This document shows, one piece after another, positions 26,646 through 42,957 of a stretch of 62,737 bases of DNA (position 1 is the first letter of the stretch; the number at the start of each line of letters is the position of its first letter). The DNA is from Candidatus Woesearchaeota archaeon (GTDB lineage Archaea > Nanobdellota > Nanobdellia > SCGC-AAA011-G17 > UBA489). Made by a program: the position numbers and the translations under genes. Under the pieces are notes generated by a model. The model was not told where the DNA came from and made no database searches. It saw only the letters and a program-made list of their open reading frames with translations. Location of the stretch: positions 1-62,737 of the forward strand of contig JABHVN010000002.1 in assembly GCA_018658265.1 (NCBI GenBank), written 5' to 3'.

Positions 26646-27227
26646 CTATAACCTCTTTTCAACTTCTTCCCAATTAATTATTTTGAAGAAATTTTCGATC
26701 CATTCAGCTCTTCTGTTTTGATATTTCAAATAATATGCATGTTCCCATACATCGCAAACTAAAAGAATTTTGTATCCGGGAATGAAAACTTTTTGATGAT
26801 TCTCAACAGAGAATATTTTCAAATCTCCACTAGGACCTTTTGCTAAAACTCCCCAACCTGAACCTTCAACAGTCAAAGTCACTTTAGAAAATTCTTCTTT
26901 AAATTTATCAAAACTTCCAAAAGATTCTTCAATAGCTTCAAAAGTAGCACCTGTTGCAATATTATCTTCACTTCCAGATCTTAAATTGTTCCAGAAATAG
27001 CTATGTAATACATGTCCTGCACCATGAAATGCCAATTCCTTTTCCCAATGCTTAACTAAAGTATAGTCTCCTTTTTCACGACATTCTTTTAATTTAGCTA
27101 CAGCATTGTTCAAACCAGCAACATATCCTGCATGATGTTTAGTATGATGCAATTCCAAGGTTTCCTTATCATAATAAGGTTCCAAGGAATCATAACCATA
27201 ATTTAATTCTGGTAATTTATATTCCAT
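26646..27227 (-). CDS. sod: Fe/Mn superoxide dismutase
   Basis: LPELNYGYDSLEPY..ELHHTKHH, DVWEHAYYLKYQNRR; 193 aa; ends in TAG at the expected C-terminus. Confidence 0.95.
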   Translation of the reverse strand: MEYKLPELNYGYDSLEPYYDKETLELHHTKHHAGYVAGLNNAVAKLKECREKGDYTLVKHWEKELAFHGAGHVLHSYFWNNLRSGSEDNIATGATFEAIEESFGSFDKFKEEFSKVTLTVEGSGWGVLAKGPSGDLKIFSVENHQKVFIPGYKILLVCDVWEHAYYLKYQNRRAEWIENFFKIINWEEVEKRL

Positions 27228-27228
27228 T

Positions 27229-27807
27229 TTATATTTTACCTACTAAATCCATTCCAGGTTTTAATGTATCATTTCCAGGTTCCCAATTAACAGGGCAAAC
27301 TTGATCGCCATGCTCTTCAACAAATTGTGCAGCCTTAATTTTTCTTAACAATTCATTAGTACTTCTACCAATAGAATTATCATGTAATTCGTAAGCTTTC
27401 AAATTTCCTTCAGGATCAATAACAAAAGTTCCTCTTAATGATAAACCTTCATCACGGATGTAAGTTCCATAATTTCTACACATTCTTCCAGTTGGATCAG
27501 CAATCATTGGAAAATTTATTTTCTTAATTGTTTCAGAATTATCTTTCCAAGCCTTGTGTACAAATGCAGTATCTGTGCTTACACTTAAAATTTCTGTATT
27601 CAGTGCCTTAAATTCTTCATACTTGTCTGCTAAGTCTCCAAGTTCTGTTGGACAGATAAATGTAAAGTCTGCAGGATAGAAAAATAGTACTACCCATTTA
27701 CCCTTGTAATCACTAAGACTTACTTTTTTAGTATCATTTCCAACTAAAGCTTCAGCTGTAAAAGCCGGAGCCATTGTACCTATTTCTAATTTAATTTCAT
27801 CAGTCAT
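27229..27807 (-). CDS. Typical 2-Cys peroxiredoxin (AhpC/Prx1 family)
   Basis: Peroxidatic Cys in FYPADFTFICPTEL, resolving Cys in DQVCPVNW. Confidence 0.93.
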   Translation of the reverse strand: MTDEIKLEIGTMAPAFTAEALVGNDTKKVSLSDYKGKWVVLFFYPADFTFICPTELGDLADKYEEFKALNTEILSVSTDTAFVHKAWKDNSETIKKINFPMIADPTGRMCRNYGTYIRDEGLSLRGTFVIDPEGNLKAYELHDNSIGRSTNELLRKIKAAQFVEEHGDQVCPVNWEPGNDTLKPGMDLVGKI

Positions 27808-28909: not shown

Positions 28910-29440
28910 ATGGGCATCCAAAACAAGATCAGAAATATCAAGATGTTCGGCTTCAGCAGCATTATGCCAAAAAAAAGCCATCAATTTGTAATAGGCATTA
29001 TTCTAGTTGCAGTATTCTTTTCTCTTGGATTTTTCTTTAATGGAGAAAACTCACCAACAATTACTGGAAGAGTAATAGAAGATACTATTCAAGACAATAC
29101 TGCCAACAATCCTTCTTTAAGCAATGAAGATACTCAAAATCAAGAAGAATCTACTGAAGAAGATCCATATGAGGTTTATGAATATTATGAATATGGCGGA
29201 GAATGTTCTTTCGATATTAAACAAGCAGAAGATGACGTTAATGACATTCTTTCGTATCTAGGTGAGAACGATGATGAATACCAAAAAATCAAAGAAGAAT
29301 ATGATAACAAATTAGAAAGCTTAAAAAACGAATATGAACCTAAATTAGAATACGCTAGAGAAGATACAGATCAAGATCAAGAAAATCTTCACGAAGCACA
29401 ATCAAAATTGCGCGAACTTCAAGAAGTTTGTTCATTTTAA
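28910..29440 (+). CDS. Membrane-anchored acidic coiled-coil protein
   Basis: TM FVIGIILVAVFFSLGFFF followed by a D/E/Y-rich coiled-coil-like region; start ambiguous (Met at residues 1, 12 or 19). Confidence 0.5.
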   Translation: MGIQNKIRNIKMFGFSSIMPKKSHQFVIGIILVAVFFSLGFFFNGENSPTITGRVIEDTIQDNTANNPSLSNEDTQNQEESTEEDPYEVYEYYEYGGECSFDIKQAEDDVNDILSYLGENDDEYQKIKEEYDNKLESLKNEYEPKLEYAREDTDQDQENLHEAQSKLRELQEVCSF

Positions 29441-29468
29441 AAAAAAGGTGGTCTAACGGAGGAATAAT

Positions 29469-29903
29469 ATGGACCAAAACAAACAATTACACATTGCATT
29501 AGGCATTGTAGTCACACTCATTTTACTTTTGAGCATTTTTACATTTGGATGGGTTATTGGAGATTCAGACGAATCAACAAATACAAATCAACTACTTGTA
29601 GTGAATAGCCTAAGAACAGTTAACACAGCAACTCAACCAGTTGTACAAGAAACTAAGTTACCTAATTTAGGACAATCATTAACTGATCAAAGTAGACAAA
29701 ATGTTGAAACAACGAACAATAATATAGAAATTAATATTCACAATTCTGGATATTATGGCAGAGGATACAACTATTATCCTAGAAGTTCGCACACTTACAG
29801 CCCATACAGAACCAGATACTACAGTGGATACCATCCTTACTACAATCATGGATTTTCATACCAAACAAGTTATGGTAATGGATTTAACTATAAATATTAT
29901 TAA
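29469..29903 (+). CDS. Membrane-anchored protein with a Tyr/Gly/Asn-rich low-complexity C-terminus
   Basis: GGAGG 8 nt upstream of the ATG; TM LHIALGIVVTLILLLSIFTFGWVI; last ~55 aa SGYYGRGYNYYPRSSHTYSPYRTRYYSGYHPYYNHGFSYQTSYGNGFNYKYY. Confidence 0.6.
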   Translation: MDQNKQLHIALGIVVTLILLLSIFTFGWVIGDSDESTNTNQLLVVNSLRTVNTATQPVVQETKLPNLGQSLTDQSRQNVETTNNNIEINIHNSGYYGRGYNYYPRSSHTYSPYRTRYYSGYHPYYNHGFSYQTSYGNGFNYKYY

Positions 29904-29934: not shown

Positions 29935-30879
29935 ATGCTAAAAAGAGGTGAGAAAATAGTTATCGCACTAGGTGGTAACTCCTTAATTAAGAAAGGTGAA
30001 AAACCCACTATTTCTAATCAATTCAAAAACGCTAAAAAAACAATGGAATACTTAGTTCCATTAATTAAAAACCATAAAGTTGTAATTACTCATGGAAATG
30101 GTTTCCAAGTGGGAAATATTCTCATCCGTGTTGAAGAATCTTTAGGCAAGGCTTACTCTATTCCTCTTGAAGTCTGTGTGGCAGAATCTCAAGGTGAACT
30201 GGGTTACATGATTGAACAAAGTTTACAAAACACATTAGCAAAAAACAAAATTAAAACTCCTGTTGTAAGCATTTTAACACAAGTACTTGTTGACAAAAAA
30301 GACCCTGCATTCAAAGATCCTACAAAACCAATTGGTCCATTCTATACTAAATCTCAAGCTCAAAAACTAATGAAGAAAGGTTTCAAGTTAGTTGAACAAA
30401 TTGGAAGGGGTTGGAGAAAAGTTGTAGCATCCCCTAAACCTATAAGCATAGATGATATAAAAATAATTGACTTATTATTGAAAAATAAAACAATTGTAAT
30501 TGCAGCTGGCGGAGGAGGAGTTCCAATAATCAAAGAAAAAGGTAAAATAACTCATGGAGTTCCAGCAGTTATTGACAAAGATCTTGCATCTGCATGTTTA
30601 GCCAATTCAATTAAGGCTAAAACATTAATAATTTTAATGAGTGAACCTTCTGCATATCTTAATTATAAGAAAAAAAATCAAAAGCCAATAAGAAGTTTAA
30701 ACATAAAAGAAGCTTCTAAATTGCTAAAAGAAGGTCATTTCCCAAAGGGTTCAATGGGCCCTAAGATTGAAGCCGCAATACAATTTATAAAAAATGGCGG
30801 AAACAATGTAATAATTACTTCCTCAAACAACATACAGAAAGCATTAATAGGAAAAAGTGGAACAGTAATAAGAAGGTAG
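29935..30879 (+). CDS. arcC: Carbamate kinase
   Basis: IVIALGGNSL, VITHGNGFQVGN, IAAGGGGVPI, VIDKDLASA; 314 aa. Confidence 0.92.
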   Translation: MLKRGEKIVIALGGNSLIKKGEKPTISNQFKNAKKTMEYLVPLIKNHKVVITHGNGFQVGNILIRVEESLGKAYSIPLEVCVAESQGELGYMIEQSLQNTLAKNKIKTPVVSILTQVLVDKKDPAFKDPTKPIGPFYTKSQAQKLMKKGFKLVEQIGRGWRKVVASPKPISIDDIKIIDLLLKNKTIVIAAGGGGVPIIKEKGKITHGVPAVIDKDLASACLANSIKAKTLIILMSEPSAYLNYKKKNQKPIRSLNIKEASKLLKEGHFPKGSMGPKIEAAIQFIKNGGNNVIITSSNNIQKALIGKSGTVIRR

Positions 30880-30887
30880 GTGAAAAG

Positions 30888-32222
30888 ATGGTGAAAAAGA
30901 ACGTAATTATAATGGGTGCAGCTGGAAGAGACTTCCACAATTTTTTAGTTTATTTCAAAGATAATCCTTATTACAAAGTTATAGGATTTACTGCAGAACA
31001 AATTCCTGGAATTGTTGACAGAAAATTCCCTGCTAAACTTGCAGGAAAGTATTACAAAAAAGGAGTTCCAATTTATCCAGAATCACAATTAACAAATTTA
31101 ATTAAAAAGAATAAAGTAAGCAAAGTATATTTATCTTACTCCGATCTACCGCACTTAGATGTAATGAACAAGGCTTCAACAGTTTTGGCTGCAGGGGCAA
31201 ACTTTTGTCTACTAGGTACTGATGAAACTCAAATAAAATCTAAAGTTCCGTTAATTTCAGTTACAGCAGTAAGAACTGGTGCAGGAAAATCTCAAACATC
31301 TAGAAGAGTTGCAGAAATTCTAAGAAAACAGGGTTACAAAGTAGTTGCAATTAGACATCCAATGCCCTATGGAGATTTAGTAAAACAAGAAGTTCAAAGA
31401 TTTACTACTTATGAAGACATGATCAAACACAAATGCACTATTGAAGAAAGAGAAGAATATGATCCATGGGTAAAATTAGGAATTCCTATTTATGCAGGAG
31501 TTAATTATGGTAAAATTCTAAAAGAAGCTGAAAAAGAAGCTGATGTAATCATATGGGATGGAGGAAACAATGACATGTGTTTCTACAAACCAGATCTAAA
31601 TATTGTAGTCTTAGACCCTCACAGAGCAGGACACGAGATGTTATACTATCCTGGAGAAGTTAATTTCAAAGCTGCAGACGTAGTAGTTATCAACAAAATG
31701 GATTCTGCACCTAAGGAAGGTGTAAAACAATTATTAATTAATTTAAAGAAATTCAACCCAAAAGCCAAACTAATCAAAGCTAATTCTCAATTAGTAATTG
31801 AAAACCCTAAATTGATGAAAGGTAAAAAGGTTCTAATTGTTGGAGACGGACCAACCTTAACTCATGGAGGAATGAGTTTTGGGGCAGGAACAATTGCCGC
31901 AAAGAAATATGGTGCTAAGATTATTAAACCACATAAATTTATCGTGGGAACATTAAAAGACACTTACAAAAAGTATCCTCATTTGTTACAAGGGAATGAA
32001 CTTCCTGCAATGGGATATACTCCTAAACAAAACAAAGAATTGGAACAAACAATCAATAAATCCAATGTGGATTTGGTTCTTGACGGTACACCTGTTAGTC
32101 TTAAAAGACAAATAAAAATAAAAAAACCTTTGATGGAAGTTAACTATGTCTTAAGAGAAATAGGAAGGCCCAACTTAATGGATGTAATCAAAAAAATAAA
32201 AATAAAAAAGAGGAAACGATGA
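30888..32222 (+). CDS. COG2403-type predicted P-loop GTPase (cyclic 2,3-diphosphoglycerate synthetase-like family)
   Basis: N-terminus VIIMGAAGRDFHNFLVYFKDNPYYKVIGFTAEQIPGI and P-loop TAVRTGAGKSQTSR match my recollection of COG2403; function unknown. Confidence 0.7.
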   Translation: MVKKNVIIMGAAGRDFHNFLVYFKDNPYYKVIGFTAEQIPGIVDRKFPAKLAGKYYKKGVPIYPESQLTNLIKKNKVSKVYLSYSDLPHLDVMNKASTVLAAGANFCLLGTDETQIKSKVPLISVTAVRTGAGKSQTSRRVAEILRKQGYKVVAIRHPMPYGDLVKQEVQRFTTYEDMIKHKCTIEEREEYDPWVKLGIPIYAGVNYGKILKEAEKEADVIIWDGGNNDMCFYKPDLNIVVLDPHRAGHEMLYYPGEVNFKAADVVVINKMDSAPKEGVKQLLINLKKFNPKAKLIKANSQLVIENPKLMKGKKVLIVGDGPTLTHGGMSFGAGTIAAKKYGAKIIKPHKFIVGTLKDTYKKYPHLLQGNELPAMGYTPKQNKELEQTINKSNVDLVLDGTPVSLKRQIKIKKPLMEVNYVLREIGRPNLMDVIKKIKIKKRKR

Positions 32223-33151
32223 AGAATTTAGTAAGCTTAAGCAACATAAGTCCAAAAGATTTTCAAGGATTAATAGACAAGGCAATTGAAATAAAAAGTA
32301 GAAAATCTATGTACACTAGAAGTTTATTTGAAAAGTCTCTAATTATGATTTTTCAAGCACCTTCTCTAAGAACAAGAGTCTCATTTGAAGTTGCAATGAC
32401 TCAACTACATGGAAGCGCTATAAACTATTATTCTGAAAACTCCCCCTGGGGCCTAGGAAAGGAATCTATGGAAGATGTAGCTAGAACTCTAAGTCAATAT
32501 TGCGATGTAATATCCGCTAGAATATATTCTCATTCAGAACTAAAAAAACTAGCAAAAAATGCTTCAGTACCCGTAATCAATATGATGACTAACGATGGAC
32601 ATCCTTGTCAAATCTTAGGTGACTTCTTAACAATTCAAGAAAAATTAGGAAAAACCAAGGGACTCAAAATTGCTTATTTAGGAGATGCTGAAAATAATGT
32701 TACTTATTCACTAATGCGGGCATGTGCACTAACAGGAAATAGCTTAACAATTGCATGTCCAAAAAACAAAGAATATTCTCCAAAAGAAAGAGTGGTTACT
32801 GAAACTAAAAAACTAGCTAAAAAATACAAAAATAAAGCTGCAGTAATTACAACGGACCCATTAAAGGCAGCAAAAAATGCAGATGTAATTTACACAGATT
32901 CTTGGATGTCTTATAGAATTCCTCAAGAAGAAAAGAATAGAAGACTAAAAGACCTTAAACCATTCCAAGTTAATAAAAAAGTATTTTCACAAGCTAAAAA
33001 AACAGCAGTATTTATGCATTGTCTTCCTGCAATGAGGGGACACGAAGTTACAGAAGAAATAATAGATGGTAAAAAATCAATAGTTTTCCCGCAAGCACAA
33101 AATAGACTCCATATTCAAAAAGCAATTCTTATGAAATTACTTAATAAATAA
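32219..33151 (+). CDS. Ornithine-carbamoyltransferase-family transcarbamylase with an atypical substrate loop
   Basis: SLRTR (canonical STRTR), HPCQILGD and HCLPAMRGHEV are present, but the OTC ornithine-binding DxxxSMG is replaced by DSWMSYR; 4-nt overlap with the upstream gene. Confidence 0.8.
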   Translation: MKNLVSLSNISPKDFQGLIDKAIEIKSRKSMYTRSLFEKSLIMIFQAPSLRTRVSFEVAMTQLHGSAINYYSENSPWGLGKESMEDVARTLSQYCDVISARIYSHSELKKLAKNASVPVINMMTNDGHPCQILGDFLTIQEKLGKTKGLKIAYLGDAENNVTYSLMRACALTGNSLTIACPKNKEYSPKERVVTETKKLAKKYKNKAAVITTDPLKAAKNADVIYTDSWMSYRIPQEEKNRRLKDLKPFQVNKKVFSQAKKTAVFMHCLPAMRGHEVTEEIIDGKKSIVFPQAQNRLHIQKAILMKLLNK

Positions 33152-33152
33152 A

Positions 33153-34499
33153 ATGGCAAATAAACAAGCAGTTGAATATGCAAAAGAGTTAGCCAACAGA
33201 GGTTTTACAGCTGATGCAGCTAGAGAAATCATGCTTTCTAGAGGATTTAACCAAAAAGACACTGATGAAGCTATGGTTCTTGCTTCAAAACCTGAAAAAC
33301 AAACTAGCGTTAATAGCCTATTAGTCATAGCACTTGTTTTTGTTATTCTTTTAATTCCCATCATGTTTTTATTGACTAGTGGAGATAGTTCAGTTGATTC
33401 AAGTTCAGATGAAACTTCTTACGTACCTCAGGCACAAGATAGTTATGAAGAACAAGAATTAAACGAAGAATTTGCTTACGGCTGTTATTCTGATGAAGAA
33501 TGTTTATTCAATGAAAACTGTTTAAACAATGAATGTTCCCCACTATACTGTACTTCTTGCGAAGAAGCATTTAACCACGAATGTACACCTTTAGTTTGTA
33601 ATGACAATGAAACAAATACTTGGGATTACTGTTCTGAAGGAACATGTTTTAACGAGATTATAACTTCTTGTATCAACGAAGATGCTTTCTGTCCAGAAGG
33701 GTGTAATGAAACTACTGACTTAGACTGTTCAATTCAAATAGAATGTACTTCAGAACTAGATTGTGGAGATGGTGACCCAGAAACAATAGATACTTGTGAA
33801 TCTCCCTTCGAAGGCGCTCCAAAAGAATGCATCCATACATTTCCACTTTGCGTAGACTTAGATGGTTACTGTCCTTCAAATTGTACAACCTTAACAGATA
33901 GCGATTGTGAATCTATTTGTGGTAACGATGTTAAAGAAGACCCTGAAGAATGTGATGGTGATTGTCCTGTAACATTTTCGGATTGTAATGATAACAACAC
34001 TTGTACAACTAACACTCTCTTAGGCTCATCAGCCCTATGTACTGCAGAATGTGTTTATACAGAGATTACAATGTGTAACTCCAATGATGGATGCTGTCCA
34101 TCTTCATGCACTTATTCATTAGACAATGACTGTGCCCCTAGTTCAAATTTACTTGCTACTGGAAGTTTTACTTCAGTACAAAGAATAGCCTCTGGAGATA
34201 TTGAGCTACTCTACTATGAAAGTGGAGTCCATAAAGTAACATTTAGTGAATTATTTTCAATAACCAATACAAATTTAAATCCAGACTTAAACATATATTT
34301 GGCAGTTAAACAACAAGTTACAACTAAAGAAGATTTAGATTCGGGAAATTTACTACTTGAACCATTACAATCCATTTCAGGCGGACAAGAATACGAAATT
34401 GCAAGTTATATTTCTAACATACAAACTTACAACAGCATAGTAATCTTCCAAGATAACTTAAATGCGGTTTACGCATATTCAACAATAAATTATAATTAA
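33153..34499 (+). CDS. Membrane-anchored Cys-rich surface protein with a C-terminal DM13-like domain
   Basis: Helical N-terminal domain, TM LLVIALVFVILLIPIMFLL, repeated CP..C..(T/L)xDxDC units (FCPEGCNETTDLDCS, YCPSNCTTLTDSDCES, CCPSSCTYSLDNDCAP). The C-terminus GSFTSVQ..SGDIELLY..VTFSELFSITN..NPDLNIYLA resembles DM13. Confidence 0.65.
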   Translation: MANKQAVEYAKELANRGFTADAAREIMLSRGFNQKDTDEAMVLASKPEKQTSVNSLLVIALVFVILLIPIMFLLTSGDSSVDSSSDETSYVPQAQDSYEEQELNEEFAYGCYSDEECLFNENCLNNECSPLYCTSCEEAFNHECTPLVCNDNETNTWDYCSEGTCFNEIITSCINEDAFCPEGCNETTDLDCSIQIECTSELDCGDGDPETIDTCESPFEGAPKECIHTFPLCVDLDGYCPSNCTTLTDSDCESICGNDVKEDPEECDGDCPVTFSDCNDNNTCTTNTLLGSSALCTAECVYTEITMCNSNDGCCPSSCTYSLDNDCAPSSNLLATGSFTSVQRIASGDIELLYYESGVHKVTFSELFSITNTNLNPDLNIYLAVKQQVTTKEDLDSGNLLLEPLQSISGGQEYEIASYISNIQTYNSIVIFQDNLNAVYAYSTINYN

Positions 34500-34500
34500 G

Positions 34501-35214
34501 ATGATAGGCAGAACAACAGTACTAACAGCAATATTCTTAGTAGTAGTTGCATTTATGTTTTATCAACCTTCCGAGAATGTAGGAGAAGTTATTCAACAGA
34601 AAGTTACACTTCAAGTTTCCGAAGAAATTTCACTATATGGAGATTTTTACCCAGAAAAGTCCAATAAAGGAATAATTCTAATTCACATGTATGGGGAAGA
34701 TAGAACTTCTTGGGATTTTTTAATACATGAACTTAGAGAGAAAGAATACAATGTACTTACTTTAGACTTAAGGGGCCATGGTGAAAGTAAACCTAACAGA
34801 GAATTAACGCAAGATGATTTTGATAGTATGTCTTCAGATCTAACTTCTGCAACAGATTATTTAATTGAGAAAAAAATTAATGAAATATCTATAATGGGTG
34901 CATCTCTTGGAGCCAATGTAGGTCTTAATTTCATTTTAAACGAGCCCAAAGCCCATAGATTAGTTCTTTTATCCCCAGGAATAGAATATCGAGGAATAAA
35001 TGTTCTTGAAAGTGCAAAATACTACGATAGACCATTATTGATTCTTTCCAGTATAGGGGATGAATATTCTTGGGACTCCTCAAATCAAATATTTAATTTA
35101 TCTCCTAGCAGAGTTAGATTAGAACCTTATGAAGGAAATATCCATGGAATTAATATTCTTAAACAAATTCCAAAATCAAAAGAATTATTATTTAAATGGC
35201 TAGAAGAGAATTGA
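34501..35214 (+). CDS. Alpha/beta hydrolase with N-terminal anchor
   Basis: Nucleophile elbow GASLGAN, HGES, C-terminal His in NIHGI; N-terminal TM. Confidence 0.75.
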   Translation: MIGRTTVLTAIFLVVVAFMFYQPSENVGEVIQQKVTLQVSEEISLYGDFYPEKSNKGIILIHMYGEDRTSWDFLIHELREKEYNVLTLDLRGHGESKPNRELTQDDFDSMSSDLTSATDYLIEKKINEISIMGASLGANVGLNFILNEPKAHRLVLLSPGIEYRGINVLESAKYYDRPLLILSSIGDEYSWDSSNQIFNLSPSRVRLEPYEGNIHGINILKQIPKSKELLFKWLEEN

Positions 35215-36103: not shown

Positions 36104-36412
36104 ATGAACTTCCAAGAAAAATGCTACAAAGTACTAAAAACAGTGCCTAAAGGTAAAATAACAACATACAAAGAAATAGCTAAAGCACTTAATTCTAAAG
36201 CTTATAGGGCAGTAGGAACTGCAATGAACAAAAACCCTTACGCTCCAAAAGTACCATGTCACAGAGTAATAAATTCGAATGGAAACGTTGGAAACTTTGA
36301 TTCAGGAACAAAAAATAAAATAAAACTTCTAAAAAAAGAAGGAATTGAAATAAAAAATAATAAAATTGATCTAAATAAATATTTATTTAGACCTTACAAA
36401 CATCGCATTTAG
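36104..36412 (+). CDS. ogt: Methylated-DNA-protein-cysteine methyltransferase, catalytic domain only
   Basis: TYKEIAK..AVGTAMNKNP..VPCHRVI with the active-site PCHR; 102 aa; 3' end overlaps the convergent dehydrogenase gene by 26 nt. Confidence 0.85.
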   Translation: MNFQEKCYKVLKTVPKGKITTYKEIAKALNSKAYRAVGTAMNKNPYAPKVPCHRVINSNGNVGNFDSGTKNKIKLLKKEGIEIKNNKIDLNKYLFRPYKHRI

Positions 36413-37493
36413 CAAGAACTCTTTCTTTAGCAATATCCATACCGTATTTACGTGGAGAAATACCTTTCTCTTTAGCCCCATCAAGAACTAATTTAGTATT
36501 AACAATTATTTTTTCTTCAACCATCTTCCACATATCTTCTACAGAACCTTTAGTATACTCTACATAGCTACTAATAACTCCTCCAGAATTTGCAACAAAA
36601 TCAGGAACAATTAATACTCCTTTTTTATGGAATGATTCTTCGACCTCATGAATCATAGGAATATTACTCCCTTCAACAATTAACTTATATTTCATTTCAT
36701 CAACATCCCCAGCATTAATTAAGTCTGGAACTGCTGCAGTAATTAAAATATCTGCATTAACTGTTTTGATGTCATGACCAGGTAAAACTTTTCCACCTTC
36801 GTATTCAGTAACAGTTTTTTTATCTTTCTTAGCACTAGCTAGTTTTTCAAAGTCTAATCCATTTTCATCAAAGATAACTCCTCTTGAATCAGAAGCAGCA
36901 ACTAACTTAGCGCCAGCTTCGGTCATAAACTTGGATACAAACCATCCAACGTTTCCAAAGCCTTCAACAGCAAAAGTAACATCTTTCAAATCCATTCCTA
37001 AATGTTCAACTGCAACCTTAGTTGCATGGAATACTCCAAAACCAGTACTACCTAACTCATGAGGTATTCCTCCCATATCTGCAGGTTTTCCTGTACAAGA
37101 TTTCATATCTCCAATAGTTTCAGCAAATATTCTCATCTCAGGTTCAGCCATATTCATATCGGGAGCAGAAACATAATGTTCCGGACAGATAACTTTCAAA
37201 CCTTCCGCAAAAGCCTTAACGAATTCAGCTTTTTCTTCTGGACTCATATCTTTATCATTTCCAATAATTCCGCCTTTTCCCCCACCAAATGGCAAATCTG
37301 CCAAAGCATTCTTCCAAGTCATTGCTCTAGCCAATCTAGAAACTTCATGAGCTGTAACTGTTGGAGTCATTCTAACTCCACCTTTAGCAGGACCTAAGGC
37401 AGTACTATCAATTACTACAAATCCTCTCATCCCAGATTTAGGATGGTAAACTTCCAGAACTTTTTCTGGACCATAACTATCATATTCAATCAT
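36387..37493 (-). CDS. Glu/Leu/Phe/Val-family amino-acid dehydrogenase (short form)
   Basis: GPAKGGVRM, LPFGGGKGGI (catalytic Lys), Rossmann VEGFGNVG; 368 aa. Confidence 0.88.
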   Translation of the reverse strand: MIEYDSYGPEKVLEVYHPKSGMRGFVVIDSTALGPAKGGVRMTPTVTAHEVSRLARAMTWKNALADLPFGGGKGGIIGNDKDMSPEEKAEFVKAFAEGLKVICPEHYVSAPDMNMAEPEMRIFAETIGDMKSCTGKPADMGGIPHELGSTGFGVFHATKVAVEHLGMDLKDVTFAVEGFGNVGWFVSKFMTEAGAKLVAASDSRGVIFDENGLDFEKLASAKKDKKTVTEYEGGKVLPGHDIKTVNADILITAAVPDLINAGDVDEMKYKLIVEGSNIPMIHEVEESFHKKGVLIVPDFVANSGGVISSYVEYTKGSVEDMWKMVEEKIIVNTKLVLDGAKEKGISPRKYGMDIAKERVLAKCDVCKV

Positions 37494-38392
37494 TTTTTTA
37501 ACCTCGTAATATAATTGTAAACACCTTGTGCTGCAATACTTCCTTCTGATGCAGATGTAATAAACTGTTTAAGTTTAGTTGAATCTGTTATATCTCCTGC
37601 TGCAAAGAAACCTTCAACATTAGTTGCACCTTCTTTGTTAACTTCTATGAATCCATGTGAATCCAATTTAACTCCCACATTAACTGCAAGTTCATTCAAG
37701 GGAATATGCCCAATCTCAATAAACAAACCATCAAGTTCTAATTCATTGCCATTATCTAACTTAACTTTAGTCATCATCTTATCGCCAAGTACTTCAACAA
37801 CATTAGCATTATGAATAACTTCAGTTTTGTCATCAGCATAAACCTGTTCAGAATTAAATGGTTCTGCTCTTAATTTATCTCCCCTATAAACAACATATAC
37901 TTTCTTAGCATAGTCTTTCATGAATATTGCTCCTAATGCTGCAGAATCGCTTCCACCAACAACAGCAACAGTACTATCTTTATACAAAGGACCATCACAA
38001 GTATAACAATAATGAACACCCTTTCCTGAAAATTCTTTTTCACCAGGAATTCCTAATTCCCTATGTTTCATCCCCATTGCAAAAATAACGGATCTTCCTT
38101 GATAACTTTCCTTTTCACAAATTACTTCAAAGCCACCTTCAATTTTTTTTATCTCTTTAACAGTATCCGTAATTAGGGGAACTTTGTACTCTTTAACATG
38201 TGCAATAAATTTATCCATTAATGCCATTCCACCTATTCCAGGTTCTCCAATCCAATTATCAACCTTATGGGCAATATTTCCAGTCCCGCCCATCTCTTTT
38301 GCAATACAAATAGTATCCAAACTAAATCTTGCAGAGTACAATGCTGCACCTAATCCAGCTGCTCCGCCTCCAAGAATAATAACATCTTTCAT
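37490..38392 (-). CDS. trxB: Thioredoxin-disulfide reductase
   Basis: FAD motif IILGGGAAGLGAA, redox-active CYTCDG, NADPH motif VVGGSDSA, GDIT. Confidence 0.9.
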   Translation of the reverse strand: MKDVIILGGGAAGLGAALYSARFSLDTICIAKEMGGTGNIAHKVDNWIGEPGIGGMALMDKFIAHVKEYKVPLITDTVKEIKKIEGGFEVICEKESYQGRSVIFAMGMKHRELGIPGEKEFSGKGVHYCYTCDGPLYKDSTVAVVGGSDSAALGAIFMKDYAKKVYVVYRGDKLRAEPFNSEQVYADDKTEVIHNANVVEVLGDKMMTKVKLDNGNELELDGLFIEIGHIPLNELAVNVGVKLDSHGFIEVNKEGATNVEGFFAAGDITDSTKLKQFITSASEGSIAAQGVYNYITRLKK

Positions 38393-38479
38393 ATATTTTC
38401 AAAATCCAAATATCTATTTAAGGATTATGTTGATGTGAATTAATAAAATGCATTAGAAGAAGATAAAACTAGTTTTAAT

Positions 38480-38809
38480 CTATTTTGCATAAATCGGATC
38501 TACAAAACTCTTTTTGAAAAATCTTAAGAAAATTCCAAATCCAACAAATACTAAGATAAATGCTACATGATCTAGAACTATATGACTCATTGCTCCTTCA
38601 GGAGGCAGTATTGTATAAATTCCTAATACTTCAATTGCTTCCAACAAGTGATATATTGCTGCAGGAACCATACTAAAGAATAACCATCTCAATGCACTAA
38701 GAAGTCCATCTTTATGGCCATTGTAAATTTTAAATGAATAGTATAAGGGAAATAATATTGCTAAAAAAGTAATTCCATGTACGATTGCTTCTAAAATTGT
38801 ATCTTCCAT
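38480..38809 (-). CDS. Small 3-TM membrane protein
   Basis: Three hydrophobic helices; no recognised family. Confidence 0.5.
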   Translation of the reverse strand: MEDTILEAIVHGITFLAILFPLYYSFKIYNGHKDGLLSALRWLFFSMVPAAIYHLLEAIEVLGIYTILPPEGAMSHIVLDHVAFILVFVGFGIFLRFFKKSFVDPIYAK

Positions 38810-38856
38810 TCACCTCAACTCCATATTAAAGAAATTTATTCAATATTTAAACTTAT

Positions 38857-39519
38857 TTATTCTTCAACAACTCTTTTTTCATGATGTTTCTCTTCAGAAC
38901 CATAGTAAGGTTCATTTTTATCAAAACCTTCATCCGTTTTCTCTTGACTTCCACCATTAGAAGGATAATACTCTTTTGTTTCTGTAACTATTTCTTCTTC
39001 TCTTTCAGGACCATTCAAAATTTCAGCAATCTTCTTACCAAATTCATTAGAAGCTTGAGGACCATCAGCAGTAACGATTTGTCCATCTACAACAACATGA
39101 CTATCTGAAGTAATTGCTCCAGCTTCATCCAAAGTACTTAGCTCAGACTCAAAAGAAGTTGCATCTTTTCCAGCTAAAACTCCTGCCCTTGCTAAAATTC
39201 CAGGAGCAATACAAATTGCACCCAATAATTTACCTTGTTCAATAGTTTGATAACACATCTCTAATACTTTTTCATTCTCAAAATACACACTTGCACCCGC
39301 ACCACCTACAAAGACAAGAGCATCATAATCTGCAACATCAGCTTCGTCAATTAACACATCTGTAACAACCTGCTTACCTTCAACAGAAGTAGCTGTATCT
39401 TGTAAACTAGAAACTAAAACTTTATGACCTGCTTTTTCAAGCTCTTCTCTAACCAAAAAGTATTCCTCATCTTTGAAATCTTGAGGTGCAATAACGATTA
39501 AAATGTCTGCCATTAGCAA
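38857..39519 (-). CDS. DJ-1/PfpI family protein with an acidic ~50-aa C-terminal extension
   Basis: LVFVGGAGA and nucleophile elbow AICIAPGILA; start may be the Met at 39513. Confidence 0.85.
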   Translation of the reverse strand: MLMADILIVIAPQDFKDEEYFLVREELEKAGHKVLVSSLQDTATSVEGKQVVTDVLIDEADVADYDALVFVGGAGASVYFENEKVLEMCYQTIEQGKLLGAICIAPGILARAGVLAGKDATSFESELSTLDEAGAITSDSHVVVDGQIVTADGPQASNEFGKKIAEILNGPEREEEIVTETKEYYPSNGGSQEKTDEGFDKNEPYYGSEEKHHEKRVVEE

Positions 39520-41802: not shown

Positions 41803-42957
41803 TCATTTCTTAATTTTACTTATAAATTTATCCATACGTCTCAATGCTTCTTCTATTTTATTATACTCTGTAGCATAACTACAACGAATATATCCTTCAC
41901 CAAATCTTCCAAACTCCCTTCCAGGAACAACTCCAACCTTTGCTTTTTTTAGCATATCAAACGCAAACTTAAAACTATCATCTGACAAATGACTAATGTC
42001 TGACAAAGTATAGAATGCACCATTAGGAGTAACTGTATTCAAACCAATTTGATTTAATCCCTTTACAATCATTTTTCTTCTTCGATCATATTCCCTTACC
42101 ATCTTATCCAAATAAGATTTTTTTAATTTCAATGCGTCCACAGCCACTTTCTGAGATAATGTCGGAGCGCAAGAAGTAGTATAAACATGAGTCTTATTCA
42201 TAGCCTCAATTAAAGGAGTTGGACCTACAGCATAACCGACCCTATATCCGCACATAGCATAAGTTTTACTGAAGGTATGCATAGTCACAACATTTTTACT
42301 CATACCATTAAATGAACCCATGCTGTGATGCTTTTTACCATAAACTAATTTTTCATAAGCTTCATCACTAAACACATAAAGATCATTATCCACTGCTATG
42401 TCTGCAACCTCTTCCAATATTTTCTTAGGTAAAACATTTCCAGTCGGATTTCCAGGAGAGTTAATCAGAATTGCTTTTGTTTTTTTATTAATTAATTTCT
42501 TCAGTTCATCAGGATTAACATGCCACCCATCTTCTGCTTTCAATTCTAATGCTACAGGAAATGCATTAAACAATTCAAACATAGGCAAATAACCTAAATA
42601 ACTAGGATTAGGAATAATTACTTGTTCGCTTACATCCAATGTACAGGCAGTGGCCAATAATAATGCCTCTTGACTTCCATTTGTTACAATTACATTATCC
42701 GGATGAGCATCAATATTATTTTCTTTTTTTAATTTCTTAACTAATGCTTCTCTAAGCTCAACTATTCCGCCAGGAGGACTATAATGATTACTTGTTGCTG
42801 CATGCTTCTTTACAGATGCAACTAAGGGTGCTGCCAAATCAAAATCAGGTTCACCAGGACCTAAAGAAACTACATTCTTATCTTCTACAGCAGCCTTCAT
42901 TAGTTTACCAATTACTGCGTTGGGCAAATCAAACTCTCTTTCAGATATATGTGTCAA
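41803..42957 (-). CDS. Class I/II PLP aminotransferase (aspartate aminotransferase-like)
   Basis: GPGEPDF, NSPGNPTG, PLP-lysine motif FSKTYAMCGYRVGY, C-terminal R in GYIRCSY. Confidence 0.9.
   Translation of the reverse strand: MTHISEREFDLPNAVIGKLMKAAVEDKNVVSLGPGEPDFDLAAPLVASVKKHAATSNHYSPPGGIVELREALVKKLKKENNIDAHPDNVIVTNGSQEALLLATACTLDVSEQVIIPNPSYLGYLPMFELFNAFPVALELKAEDGWHVNPDELKKLINKKTKAILINSPGNPTGNVLPKKILEEVADIAVDNDLYVFSDEAYEKLVYGKKHHSMGSFNGMSKNVVTMHTFSKTYAMCGYRVGYAVGPTPLIEAMNKTHVYTTSCAPTLSQKVAVDALKLKKSYLDKMVREYDRRRKMIVKGLNQIGLNTVTPNGAFYTLSDISHLSDDSFKFAFDMLKKAKVGVVPGREFGRFGEGYIRCSYATEYNKIEEALRRMDKFISKIKK

Follow-up and report, generated by a model that had tools for sequence, protein, structure and literature searches.

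How could a carbamate kinase and a transcarbamylase yield ATP in an archaeon with no visible deiminase, and why should a P-loop protein be encoded between them? The question is raised by three plus-strand genes in the 62,737-nt stretch of DNA analysed here (the window), from a Candidatus Woesearchaeota archaeon (contig JABHVN010000002.1, assembly GCA_018658265.1): arcC (29935..30879; 314 aa), arcE (30888..32222; 444 aa) and arcB (32219..33151; 310 aa). The open reading frame (ORF) coordinates place 8 nt between arcC and arcE and an overlap of 4 nt between arcE and arcB, and together with equivalog scores they agree with the initial annotation, which paired a carbamate kinase with a transcarbamylase of the ornithine carbamoyltransferase (OTC) family. 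That annotation took the cluster for the ATP-yielding half of a deiminase-type pathway, with a P-loop (COG2403) protein of unknown function in an unexplained position. As judged from its sequence and modelled fold, the P-loop protein belongs to the ArcE family of arginine synthetases, whose reaction was published in 2024 (PMC11032458), and would fill the place of the deiminase. The ATP-yielding part of the earlier reading stands; the pathway is best read as complete rather than half, because ArcE does the deimination, converting arginine to citrulline and ATP. On the gene identities, the family assignment by sequence and fold, the linkage, the complementarity with arginine deiminase (ADI) and the absent anabolic partners observed here, the trio is very probably the arginine synthetase pathway ArcE-ArcB-ArcC run catabolically.

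Identity of the enzyme encoded between arcC and arcB

The host genome comprises 616,901 bp in 47 contigs, is estimated to be 92% complete and carries the trio-bearing window on contig 5. Archaeal genes flank the trio (OapB/OapC, RtcB with archease, FttA and a proteasome subunit), the nearest homologues come from metagenome-assembled genomes (MAGs) of Woesearchaeota, Pacearchaeota and “Nanoarchaeota”, and the GC content is ~32%; the host is therefore an ultrasmall DPANN archaeon of a Woesearchaeota-type genus with a 0.6-Mb genome. It is probably not a thermophile.

The 444-aa P-loop protein matched no curated family in Pfam or NCBIfam, the copies searched containing no ArcE model. Its weak P-loop matches were to CobW (E = 2e-4), HypB and LpxK, under cut-off, and the sole match in a sequence search of the PDB was a partial stretch of cyclic 2,3-diphosphoglycerate (cDPG) synthetase (9sxb; E = 0.003, 19.8 bits). 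The family itself is large, with more than 8,000 clusters scored in the homology search, and strongly conserved, at 55–65% identity between DPANN archaea and Aminicenantes, Chloroflexota and Thermotogota. When the Aciduliprofundum copy (L018) served as the seed of a second homology search, named Thermococcus, Pyrococcus and Palaeococcus proteins were retrieved at 80–83% identity. The window protein aligns over 434 of its 444 aa, with 58% identity, 79% positives and 533 bits, to P0171, the representative of a cluster of 201 Thermococcus/Palaeococcus (Thermococcales) proteins sharing at least 90% identity. A maximum-likelihood tree of 106 sequences nests the Thermococcales proteins within the short-branched family that holds the window protein, and shows no deep paralogue split. 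Across 43 homologues the Walker A motif R129-T-G-x-G-K-S135 (RTGxGKS) is invariant and the segment D224-G-G-N-N-D229 invariant or nearly so, with G225 present in at least 90%.

An AlphaFold (AF2) model of the protein was built from the same number of sequences (43; predicted local distance difference test score 93, predicted TM score 0.91) and searched with Foldseek. The best matches were cDPG synthetases 8ork and 8oru (E ~1e-16), at 17–18% identity in the structural alignment, followed by LpxK 4ehy (E = 2e-8) and then other SIMIBI-class P-loop proteins. This pattern matches the one published for TK2200 of T. kodakarensis, whose predicted fold resembles LpxK 4EHY and is distantly related to cDPG synthetase (PMC11032458). 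Michimori, Yokooji and Atomi (PNAS 2024) had noted that many archaea carry arcC but not arcA, and chose TK2200, annotated as a “hypothetical/putative GTPase”, as the gene filling the arcA gap (PMC11032458). They established biochemically and genetically that TK2200 is ArcE, an ADP-forming arginine synthetase catalysing L-arginine + ADP + Pi <-> L-citrulline + NH3 + ATP, with an equilibrium constant of ~10 at 80 °C; it is specific for L-arginine and free ammonia and inactive on agmatine, D-arginine and guanidine (PMC11032458). The same work states that Thermococcus, Pyrococcus and Palaeococcus carry arcE, and reports that arcE adjoins arcB and/or arcC in some genomes (PMC11032458). NCBI and UniRef name members of the family (P0006, P0020, P0030, P0116, P0171 and others) “cyclic 2,3-diphosphoglycerate synthase” or “GTPase”, labels that sit also on the Thermococcus orthologues of the characterised enzyme.

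Linkage was compared across three sets of genomes or loci. In the first, the 80 closest arcE loci in a collection of species-representative genomes, all of them MAGs, 29 loci from many phyla have arcC and/or arcB within 8 kb of arcE, and 15 have both. The genes run arcE-arcC-arcB in Aminicenantes but arcC-arcE-arcB in Woesearchaeota, a difference that speaks for selection on the linkage and against shared ancestry of one operon. The second set, 301 evenly drawn genomes of the host phylum, each at least 90% complete, holds ArcE in 26 genomes and ArcC in 20. ArcE is found in 19 of these 20 ArcC holders, an OTC over cut-off in 19 of the 19 with both, and arcC and/or arcB within 8 kb of arcE in 18 of the 19. 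Together with the 29 of 80 loci above, the last figure means that the linkage is not chance, and these counts bear out the co-occurrence of COG2403 with arcC and transcarbamylases that the initial annotation had proposed to examine. In the third set, 20 fetched DPANN loci, the trio lies within a few kb in 17 and in strict arcC-arcE-arcB order in 14; the block recurs in many families.

ArcE and the classical enzyme exclude one another in the phylum sample: none of the seven ADI holders has ArcE, and the lone ArcC holder without ArcE (G276) carries a classical ADI. The ArcE/ADI complementarity that led to the discovery of the enzyme is thereby reproduced in a lineage absent from the main text of PMC11032458. 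Our literature search yielded no paper that connects arginine synthetase with DPANN archaea. Since the pathway was published in 2024, the trio itself is no discovery; what is new is the DPANN lineage, the compact arcC-arcE-arcB order, the Giardia-type loop of the OTC and the fact that other routes to ATP appear to be missing.

The pathway and its direction

The arcC product scores 372.1 bits against the TIGR00746 equivalog (cut-off 358.25; residues 7–312), and its closest solved structures are the carbamate kinases of P. furiosus (1e19, 264 bits), Enterococcus (1b7b) and Giardia (3kzf). Its reaction is carbamoyl phosphate + ADP -> ATP + carbamate. In the proposed scheme, ArcE would stand in for ADI: phosphate would attack the guanidino carbon of L-arginine, ammonia would leave, and the resulting O-phospho-isourea form of citrulline would pass its phosphoryl group to ADP, giving citrulline and ATP. 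The reaction and its equilibrium are taken from the literature on TK2200; we infer the phospho-isourea mechanism, by analogy with the chemistry of CTP synthase and adenylosuccinate synthetase, as well as the in vivo direction and the transporter. ArcB would then cleave citrulline by phosphorolysis to ornithine and carbamoyl phosphate, and ArcC would transfer the phosphate of the latter to ADP for a second ATP. The net conversion would be Arg + 2 ADP + 2 Pi + H2O -> Orn + CO2 + 2 NH3 + 2 ATP.

The partners that would be expected of other pathways were searched for and are missing. As the initial annotation had it, no deiminase occurs in the flanks, nor any transporter (~30 flanking genes scanned), and the whole-genome check that it suggested likewise gave no match to ADI (PF02274, arcA) or agmatine deiminase (PF04371, aguA). 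PF02274, whose positive controls were matched, is also without a match in the four genus relatives within the phylum sample. A classical ADI pathway is therefore ruled out for the trio, its defining enzyme having been searched for and found absent. The host genome furthermore showed no carbamoyl-phosphate synthetase (a single sub-threshold ATP-grasp match was obtained), no argininosuccinate synthetase (argG), no pyrB, only one transcarbamylase, no class-III aminotransferase, no aldehyde dehydrogenase and no ornithine cyclodeaminase, and the scanned proteins gave no amino-acid kinase match besides arcC. With no ornithine-making genes and no consumer of carbamoyl phosphate besides ArcC, the catabolic direction is the most economical, and we consider this ATP-yielding direction the most likely. 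The surroundings of the arc genes in relatives agree with it: four loci have an M42 aminopeptidase immediately 5' of arcC, seven have an aldehyde dehydrogenase, four to five a class-III (ornithine-type) aminotransferase and one a proline dehydrogenase, and genes for an enzyme resembling glutamate dehydrogenase (GDH) and for a class I/II aminotransferase recur nearby.

The same trio could instead be run anabolically, salvaging ornithine to arginine at a cost of two ATP. Carbamate kinase would make carbamoyl phosphate from CO2, NH3 and ATP, OTC would join it to imported ornithine to give citrulline, and ArcE would use ATP to form arginine. ArcE does work in both directions, and in T. kodakarensis it sustains the formation of arginine from citrulline in vivo; a biosynthetic role has been suggested for some bacteria without argG/argH (PMC11032458); the host, too, lacks argG. 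Against this stand the missing ornithine-making genes (neither a class-III aminotransferase nor an amino-acid kinase besides arcC was found, the latter on the scanned proteins) and the catabolic neighbours just described. The carbamate kinase equilibrium lies on the side of ATP formation, and a host-dependent cell is likelier to receive arginine or peptides than ornithine. We judge the anabolic direction unlikely.

Alternatively, the pathway might chiefly supply carbamoyl phosphate for pyrimidines or for [NiFe]-hydrogenase maturation rather than ATP. In T. kodakarensis, pyrimidine prototrophy without carbamoyl-phosphate synthetase depends on arcE and arcB and does not require arcC (2026; PMC13260591), an enzyme that the present host likewise lacks. 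The sole transcarbamylase here is an OTC, however, which leaves no aspartate carbamoyltransferase, and nearly all DPANN holders have retained arcC in close coupling with arcE. This role is very unlikely to be the principal one.

The transcarbamylase carries one feature that could point to a different substrate. The arcB product, the sole transcarbamylase of the host genome, passes both OTC equivalogs (TIGR00658, 331.8 bits against a cut-off of 280.85; PRK00779, 350 bits against 306) and has the motifs SLRTR at residue 49, HPCQ at 128 and HCLP at 267. The change from STRTR to SLRTR is also found in most bacterial ArcE-linked OTCs. The D-x-x-x-S-M-G ornithine-binding loop, in contrast, reads DSWMSYR: S-Y-[RHKNQ] takes the place of SMG in all DPANN ArcBs examined (the window and loci L096–L115), whereas the bacterial ArcE-linked OTCs retain SMG. 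The altered loop, together with 251 bits to the putrescine carbamoyltransferase model, could be read as a sign that the enzyme is not an OTC and that the pathway acts on another guanidino or carbamoylated compound, such as agmatine/putrescine or an N-acyl-ornithine. That score is far under the model's cut-off of 500, though, both OTC equivalogs are passed, and TK2200 is inactive on agmatine, D-arginine and guanidine (PMC11032458). Moreover, the best PDB match of ArcB, ahead of P. furiosus OTC 1a1s, is the catabolic Giardia lamblia enzyme 3grf (262 bits), which has an S-Y-H loop and is deposited as an ornithine carbamoyltransferase. We regard a different substrate as highly improbable; the unusual substrate that the initial annotation envisaged finds no sign in the scores or in the loop, which is common to the Giardia enzyme, and window ArcB is treated as a putative OTC whose loop type is known but unusual. 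The S-Y-[RHKNQ] loop may mark a distinct catabolic OTC subfamily common to DPANN archaea and a eukaryote, perhaps by transfer.

Barely credible, finally, is a cDPG synthetase or a HypB/UreG-like GTPase chaperone placed between arcC and arcB by chance, which has in its favour the NCBI and UniRef names, the best fold match and the weak CobW/HypB matches, but which must contend with a match to real cDPG synthetase of E = 0.003, 20 bits and 17–18% identity against 533 bits to the ArcE clade, with the same names on Thermococcus proteins of the proven arginine synthetase family, and with linkage and ADI complementarity that point to arginine. The P-loop protein is accordingly not taken for a cDPG synthetase, despite the database labels.

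Several points weigh against catabolic arginine use by ArcE, ArcB and ArcC. The link to TK2200 runs via genus-level orthologues, T. kodakarensis not being among the 15 cluster members listed by name, and the ArcE reaction, known for TK2200 only, is extended to the window protein by family membership. ArcB has lost the SMG loop, so that its putative ornithine specificity leans on the Giardia enzyme. The ArcE reaction is near equilibrium (deltaG0' ~-7 kJ/mol), its direction being set by metabolite levels. The absences in the host genome rest on a draft that is 92% complete. No dedicated arginine/ornithine antiporter was found, and the candidate permease considered next is missing in five of the 19 ArcE+ArcC genomes.

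Transport, energy supply and related systems

Arginine would probably enter and ornithine leave the cell through the single APC-family permease of the host genome (C24:8169-9338). The initial annotation had reported no antiporter in the flanks; this holds, and the whole genome gave no match to the DcuC (ArcD-type) family, but this one general APC permease lies elsewhere. Its highest scores are with subfamilies of general and cationic amino-acid transporters, and its matches to arginine/ornithine antiporter models are weak. In the phylum sample, an orthologue (E <= 1e-75) is present in 14 of the 19 ArcE+ArcC genomes and in 25 of the 275 ArcE-negative ones; in G184 its distance to arcC is 1.1 kb, and in G086 its distance to the block is 5.6 kb. 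Because related genomes are not independent observations, the association with ArcE is suggestive only.

The initial annotation had supposed that substrate-level ATP synthesis would matter in an organism with sparse energy metabolism, and the genus fits that description. ArcE is present in all nine of its genomes (0.6–0.8 Mb), and none of the nine matched ATP synthase A/B (PF00006), phosphoglycerate kinase, pyruvate kinase or acetate kinase, the controls being matched. ADP-forming acetyl-CoA synthetase was not found in the host genome, and an enzyme of the pyruvate phosphate dikinase/phosphoenolpyruvate synthase type occurs in two of the nine genomes, the host not among them. The search for an ATP/ADP translocase (PF03219) matched none of the control genomes and therefore carries no weight here. 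It is plausible, yet tentative because these are absences in draft genomes, that arcC-arcE-arcB is the main, perhaps the only, ATP-generating system in the genus; we hold this at somewhat less than even confidence.

Were it so, arginine from the host or from peptides would sustain these 0.6–0.8-Mb archaea, each molecule yielding two ATP, in an archaeal parallel to the arginine deiminase system of episymbiotic Saccharibacteria that would be the more efficient of the two. Earlier findings of arcC in such genomes would be explained as well, as in a 2020 preprint in which arcC was noted in a 679-kb Woesearchaeotal MAG with “no full energetic pathway”. The labels “GTPase” and “cyclic 2,3-diphosphoglycerate synthase” cause metabolic reconstructions of DPANN archaea to miss a complete two-ATP pathway. 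Since the pathway is present in nine of nine genomes, with ATP synthase and the glycolytic ATP steps unfound in any, arginine is a concrete candidate for a host-supplied compound and offers a handle for enrichment or co-culture.

Comparison with known systems places the trio closest to the T. kodakarensis pathway of ArcE (TK2200), ArcB (TK0871) and ArcC (TK2158), which consists of the same three enzyme families (PMC11032458). The two organisms have in common the lack of arcA, carbamoyl-phosphate synthetase and argG/argH, the LpxK/cDPG synthetase-like P-loop fold and the ArcE/ADI complementarity. They differ in that the arc genes form a compact arcC-arcE-arcB block in the host and, judging from the gene numbers, are scattered in T. 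kodakarensis, and in that the host is a low-GC (32%), 0.6-Mb DPANN archaeon whose ArcB has a Giardia-type S-Y-R loop. The host moreover lacks pyrB, and with it any visible biosynthetic use of carbamoyl phosphate, and lacks ornithine cyclodeaminase, which leaves no proline route.

The classical arcABC system with ArcD (Pseudomonas aeruginosa, Halobacterium salinarum, Giardia) uses the same OTC and carbamate kinase steps for the same overall conversion, arginine to ornithine, CO2 and two NH3 with substrate-level ATP. Its hydrolytic ADI (PF02274) leaves a yield of one ATP, whereas the unrelated P-loop enzyme of the host would conserve the energy of deimination for a yield of two; the classical pathway has the DcuC-family ArcD antiporter, and none was found in the host. 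In the ultrasmall, episymbiotic Saccharibacteria (PNAS 2022, PMC8764695), too, an arginine-to-ATP module is kept by a reduced cell that depends on a host and has little other energy metabolism; they are bacterial (candidate phyla radiation) and their module is a classical, acquired ADI system, while the present host is archaeal (DPANN) and uses ArcE. The cDPG synthetase of Methanothermus fervidus (8ork, 8oru, 9sxb) provides the closest solved fold to window ArcE and is the source of the database label; it differs in substrate and genomic context, and by sequence the window protein falls outside that family.

Two ArcE matches in genus relatives, G260:C2:84494-85825 and G303:C53:31-1068, contain one in-frame stop each (TGA, TAA), which may reflect sequencing errors, pseudogenes or recoding.

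Genes and signals around the trio

Upstream of arcC, 28910..29903 on the plus strand encodes two small proteins of low complexity with a membrane anchor (176 and 144 aa), neither of which has a Pfam or NCBIfam family. They lie 5' of arcC in six and four of eight genus relatives, respectively, and are kept within the genus only; they are possibly co-transcribed with arcC and fall outside the pathway. The second ends in a Tyr/Gly/Asn-rich low-complexity C-terminal tail (…YYGRGYNYYPRSS…YKYY). TATA-like boxes occur 5' of arcC and 5' of the first small gene. The former, TATATAAA, ~21–28 nt 5' of the arcC ATG, might be the arcC promoter, but such boxes are weak evidence because the genome is 32% GC. 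Scans for bacterial promoters and terminators gave matches no more numerous than in shuffled sequence.

Downstream, also on the plus strand, 33153..35214 encodes a 448-aa Cys-rich membrane-anchored surface protein (33153-34499) and then a 237-aa alpha/beta hydrolase, each gene starting 1 nt past the preceding stop, which for the former is that of arcB. In the 448-aa protein, one membrane helix separates a cytoplasmic N-terminal head from an outer part that is very rich in Cys and also rich in Asp/Asn/Thr; the protein belongs to no Pfam family, and five genus relatives have it in the same position after arcB. These properties, and its restriction to the genus, rule it out as a hidden deiminase. 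The 237-aa protein matches Hydrolase_4/Abhydrolase and follows arcB in the genus only. Within the genus, these upstream and downstream genes extend the arc block into a longer conserved array. As none of them is conserved outside the genus, the small upstream proteins, the 448-aa protein and the hydrolase are regarded as passengers.

Further genes of amino-acid metabolism lie on the minus strand. At 36387..37493 is a dehydrogenase of the Glu/Leu/Phe/Val type (GDH-like; PF00208, PF02812), whose gene also lies close to the arc genes in relatives from the genus and from two further families (L104, L111). The protein is short (368 aa), matches the archaeal GdhA model only from about position 55 onward and scores far under the glutamate dehydrogenase cut-offs, so that its amino-acid substrate is uncertain from sequence. 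A class I/II aminotransferase (PF00155, 229 bits) is encoded at 41803..42957; orthologues 54% identical to it abut arcC directly on the 5' side in L113 and L114 and lie nearby in L115, which represent another family of the order. In several loci of the order or class (L101 from G304, L105, L107, L108, L109, L113 and L114), an aldehyde dehydrogenase and a class-III aminotransferase adjoin arcC-arcE-arcB, with a proline dehydrogenase once. The context in these loci suggests a full route from arginine through ornithine to glutamate, one that is lacking in the host genome.

Around the arc block (26646-27807 and 37490-39519) we also observed a group of oxidative-stress genes, encoding an Fe/Mn superoxide dismutase, a peroxiredoxin, a thioredoxin-reductase-like flavoprotein and a DJ-1/PfpI protein, a cluster that is notable for a presumed anaerobic symbiont.

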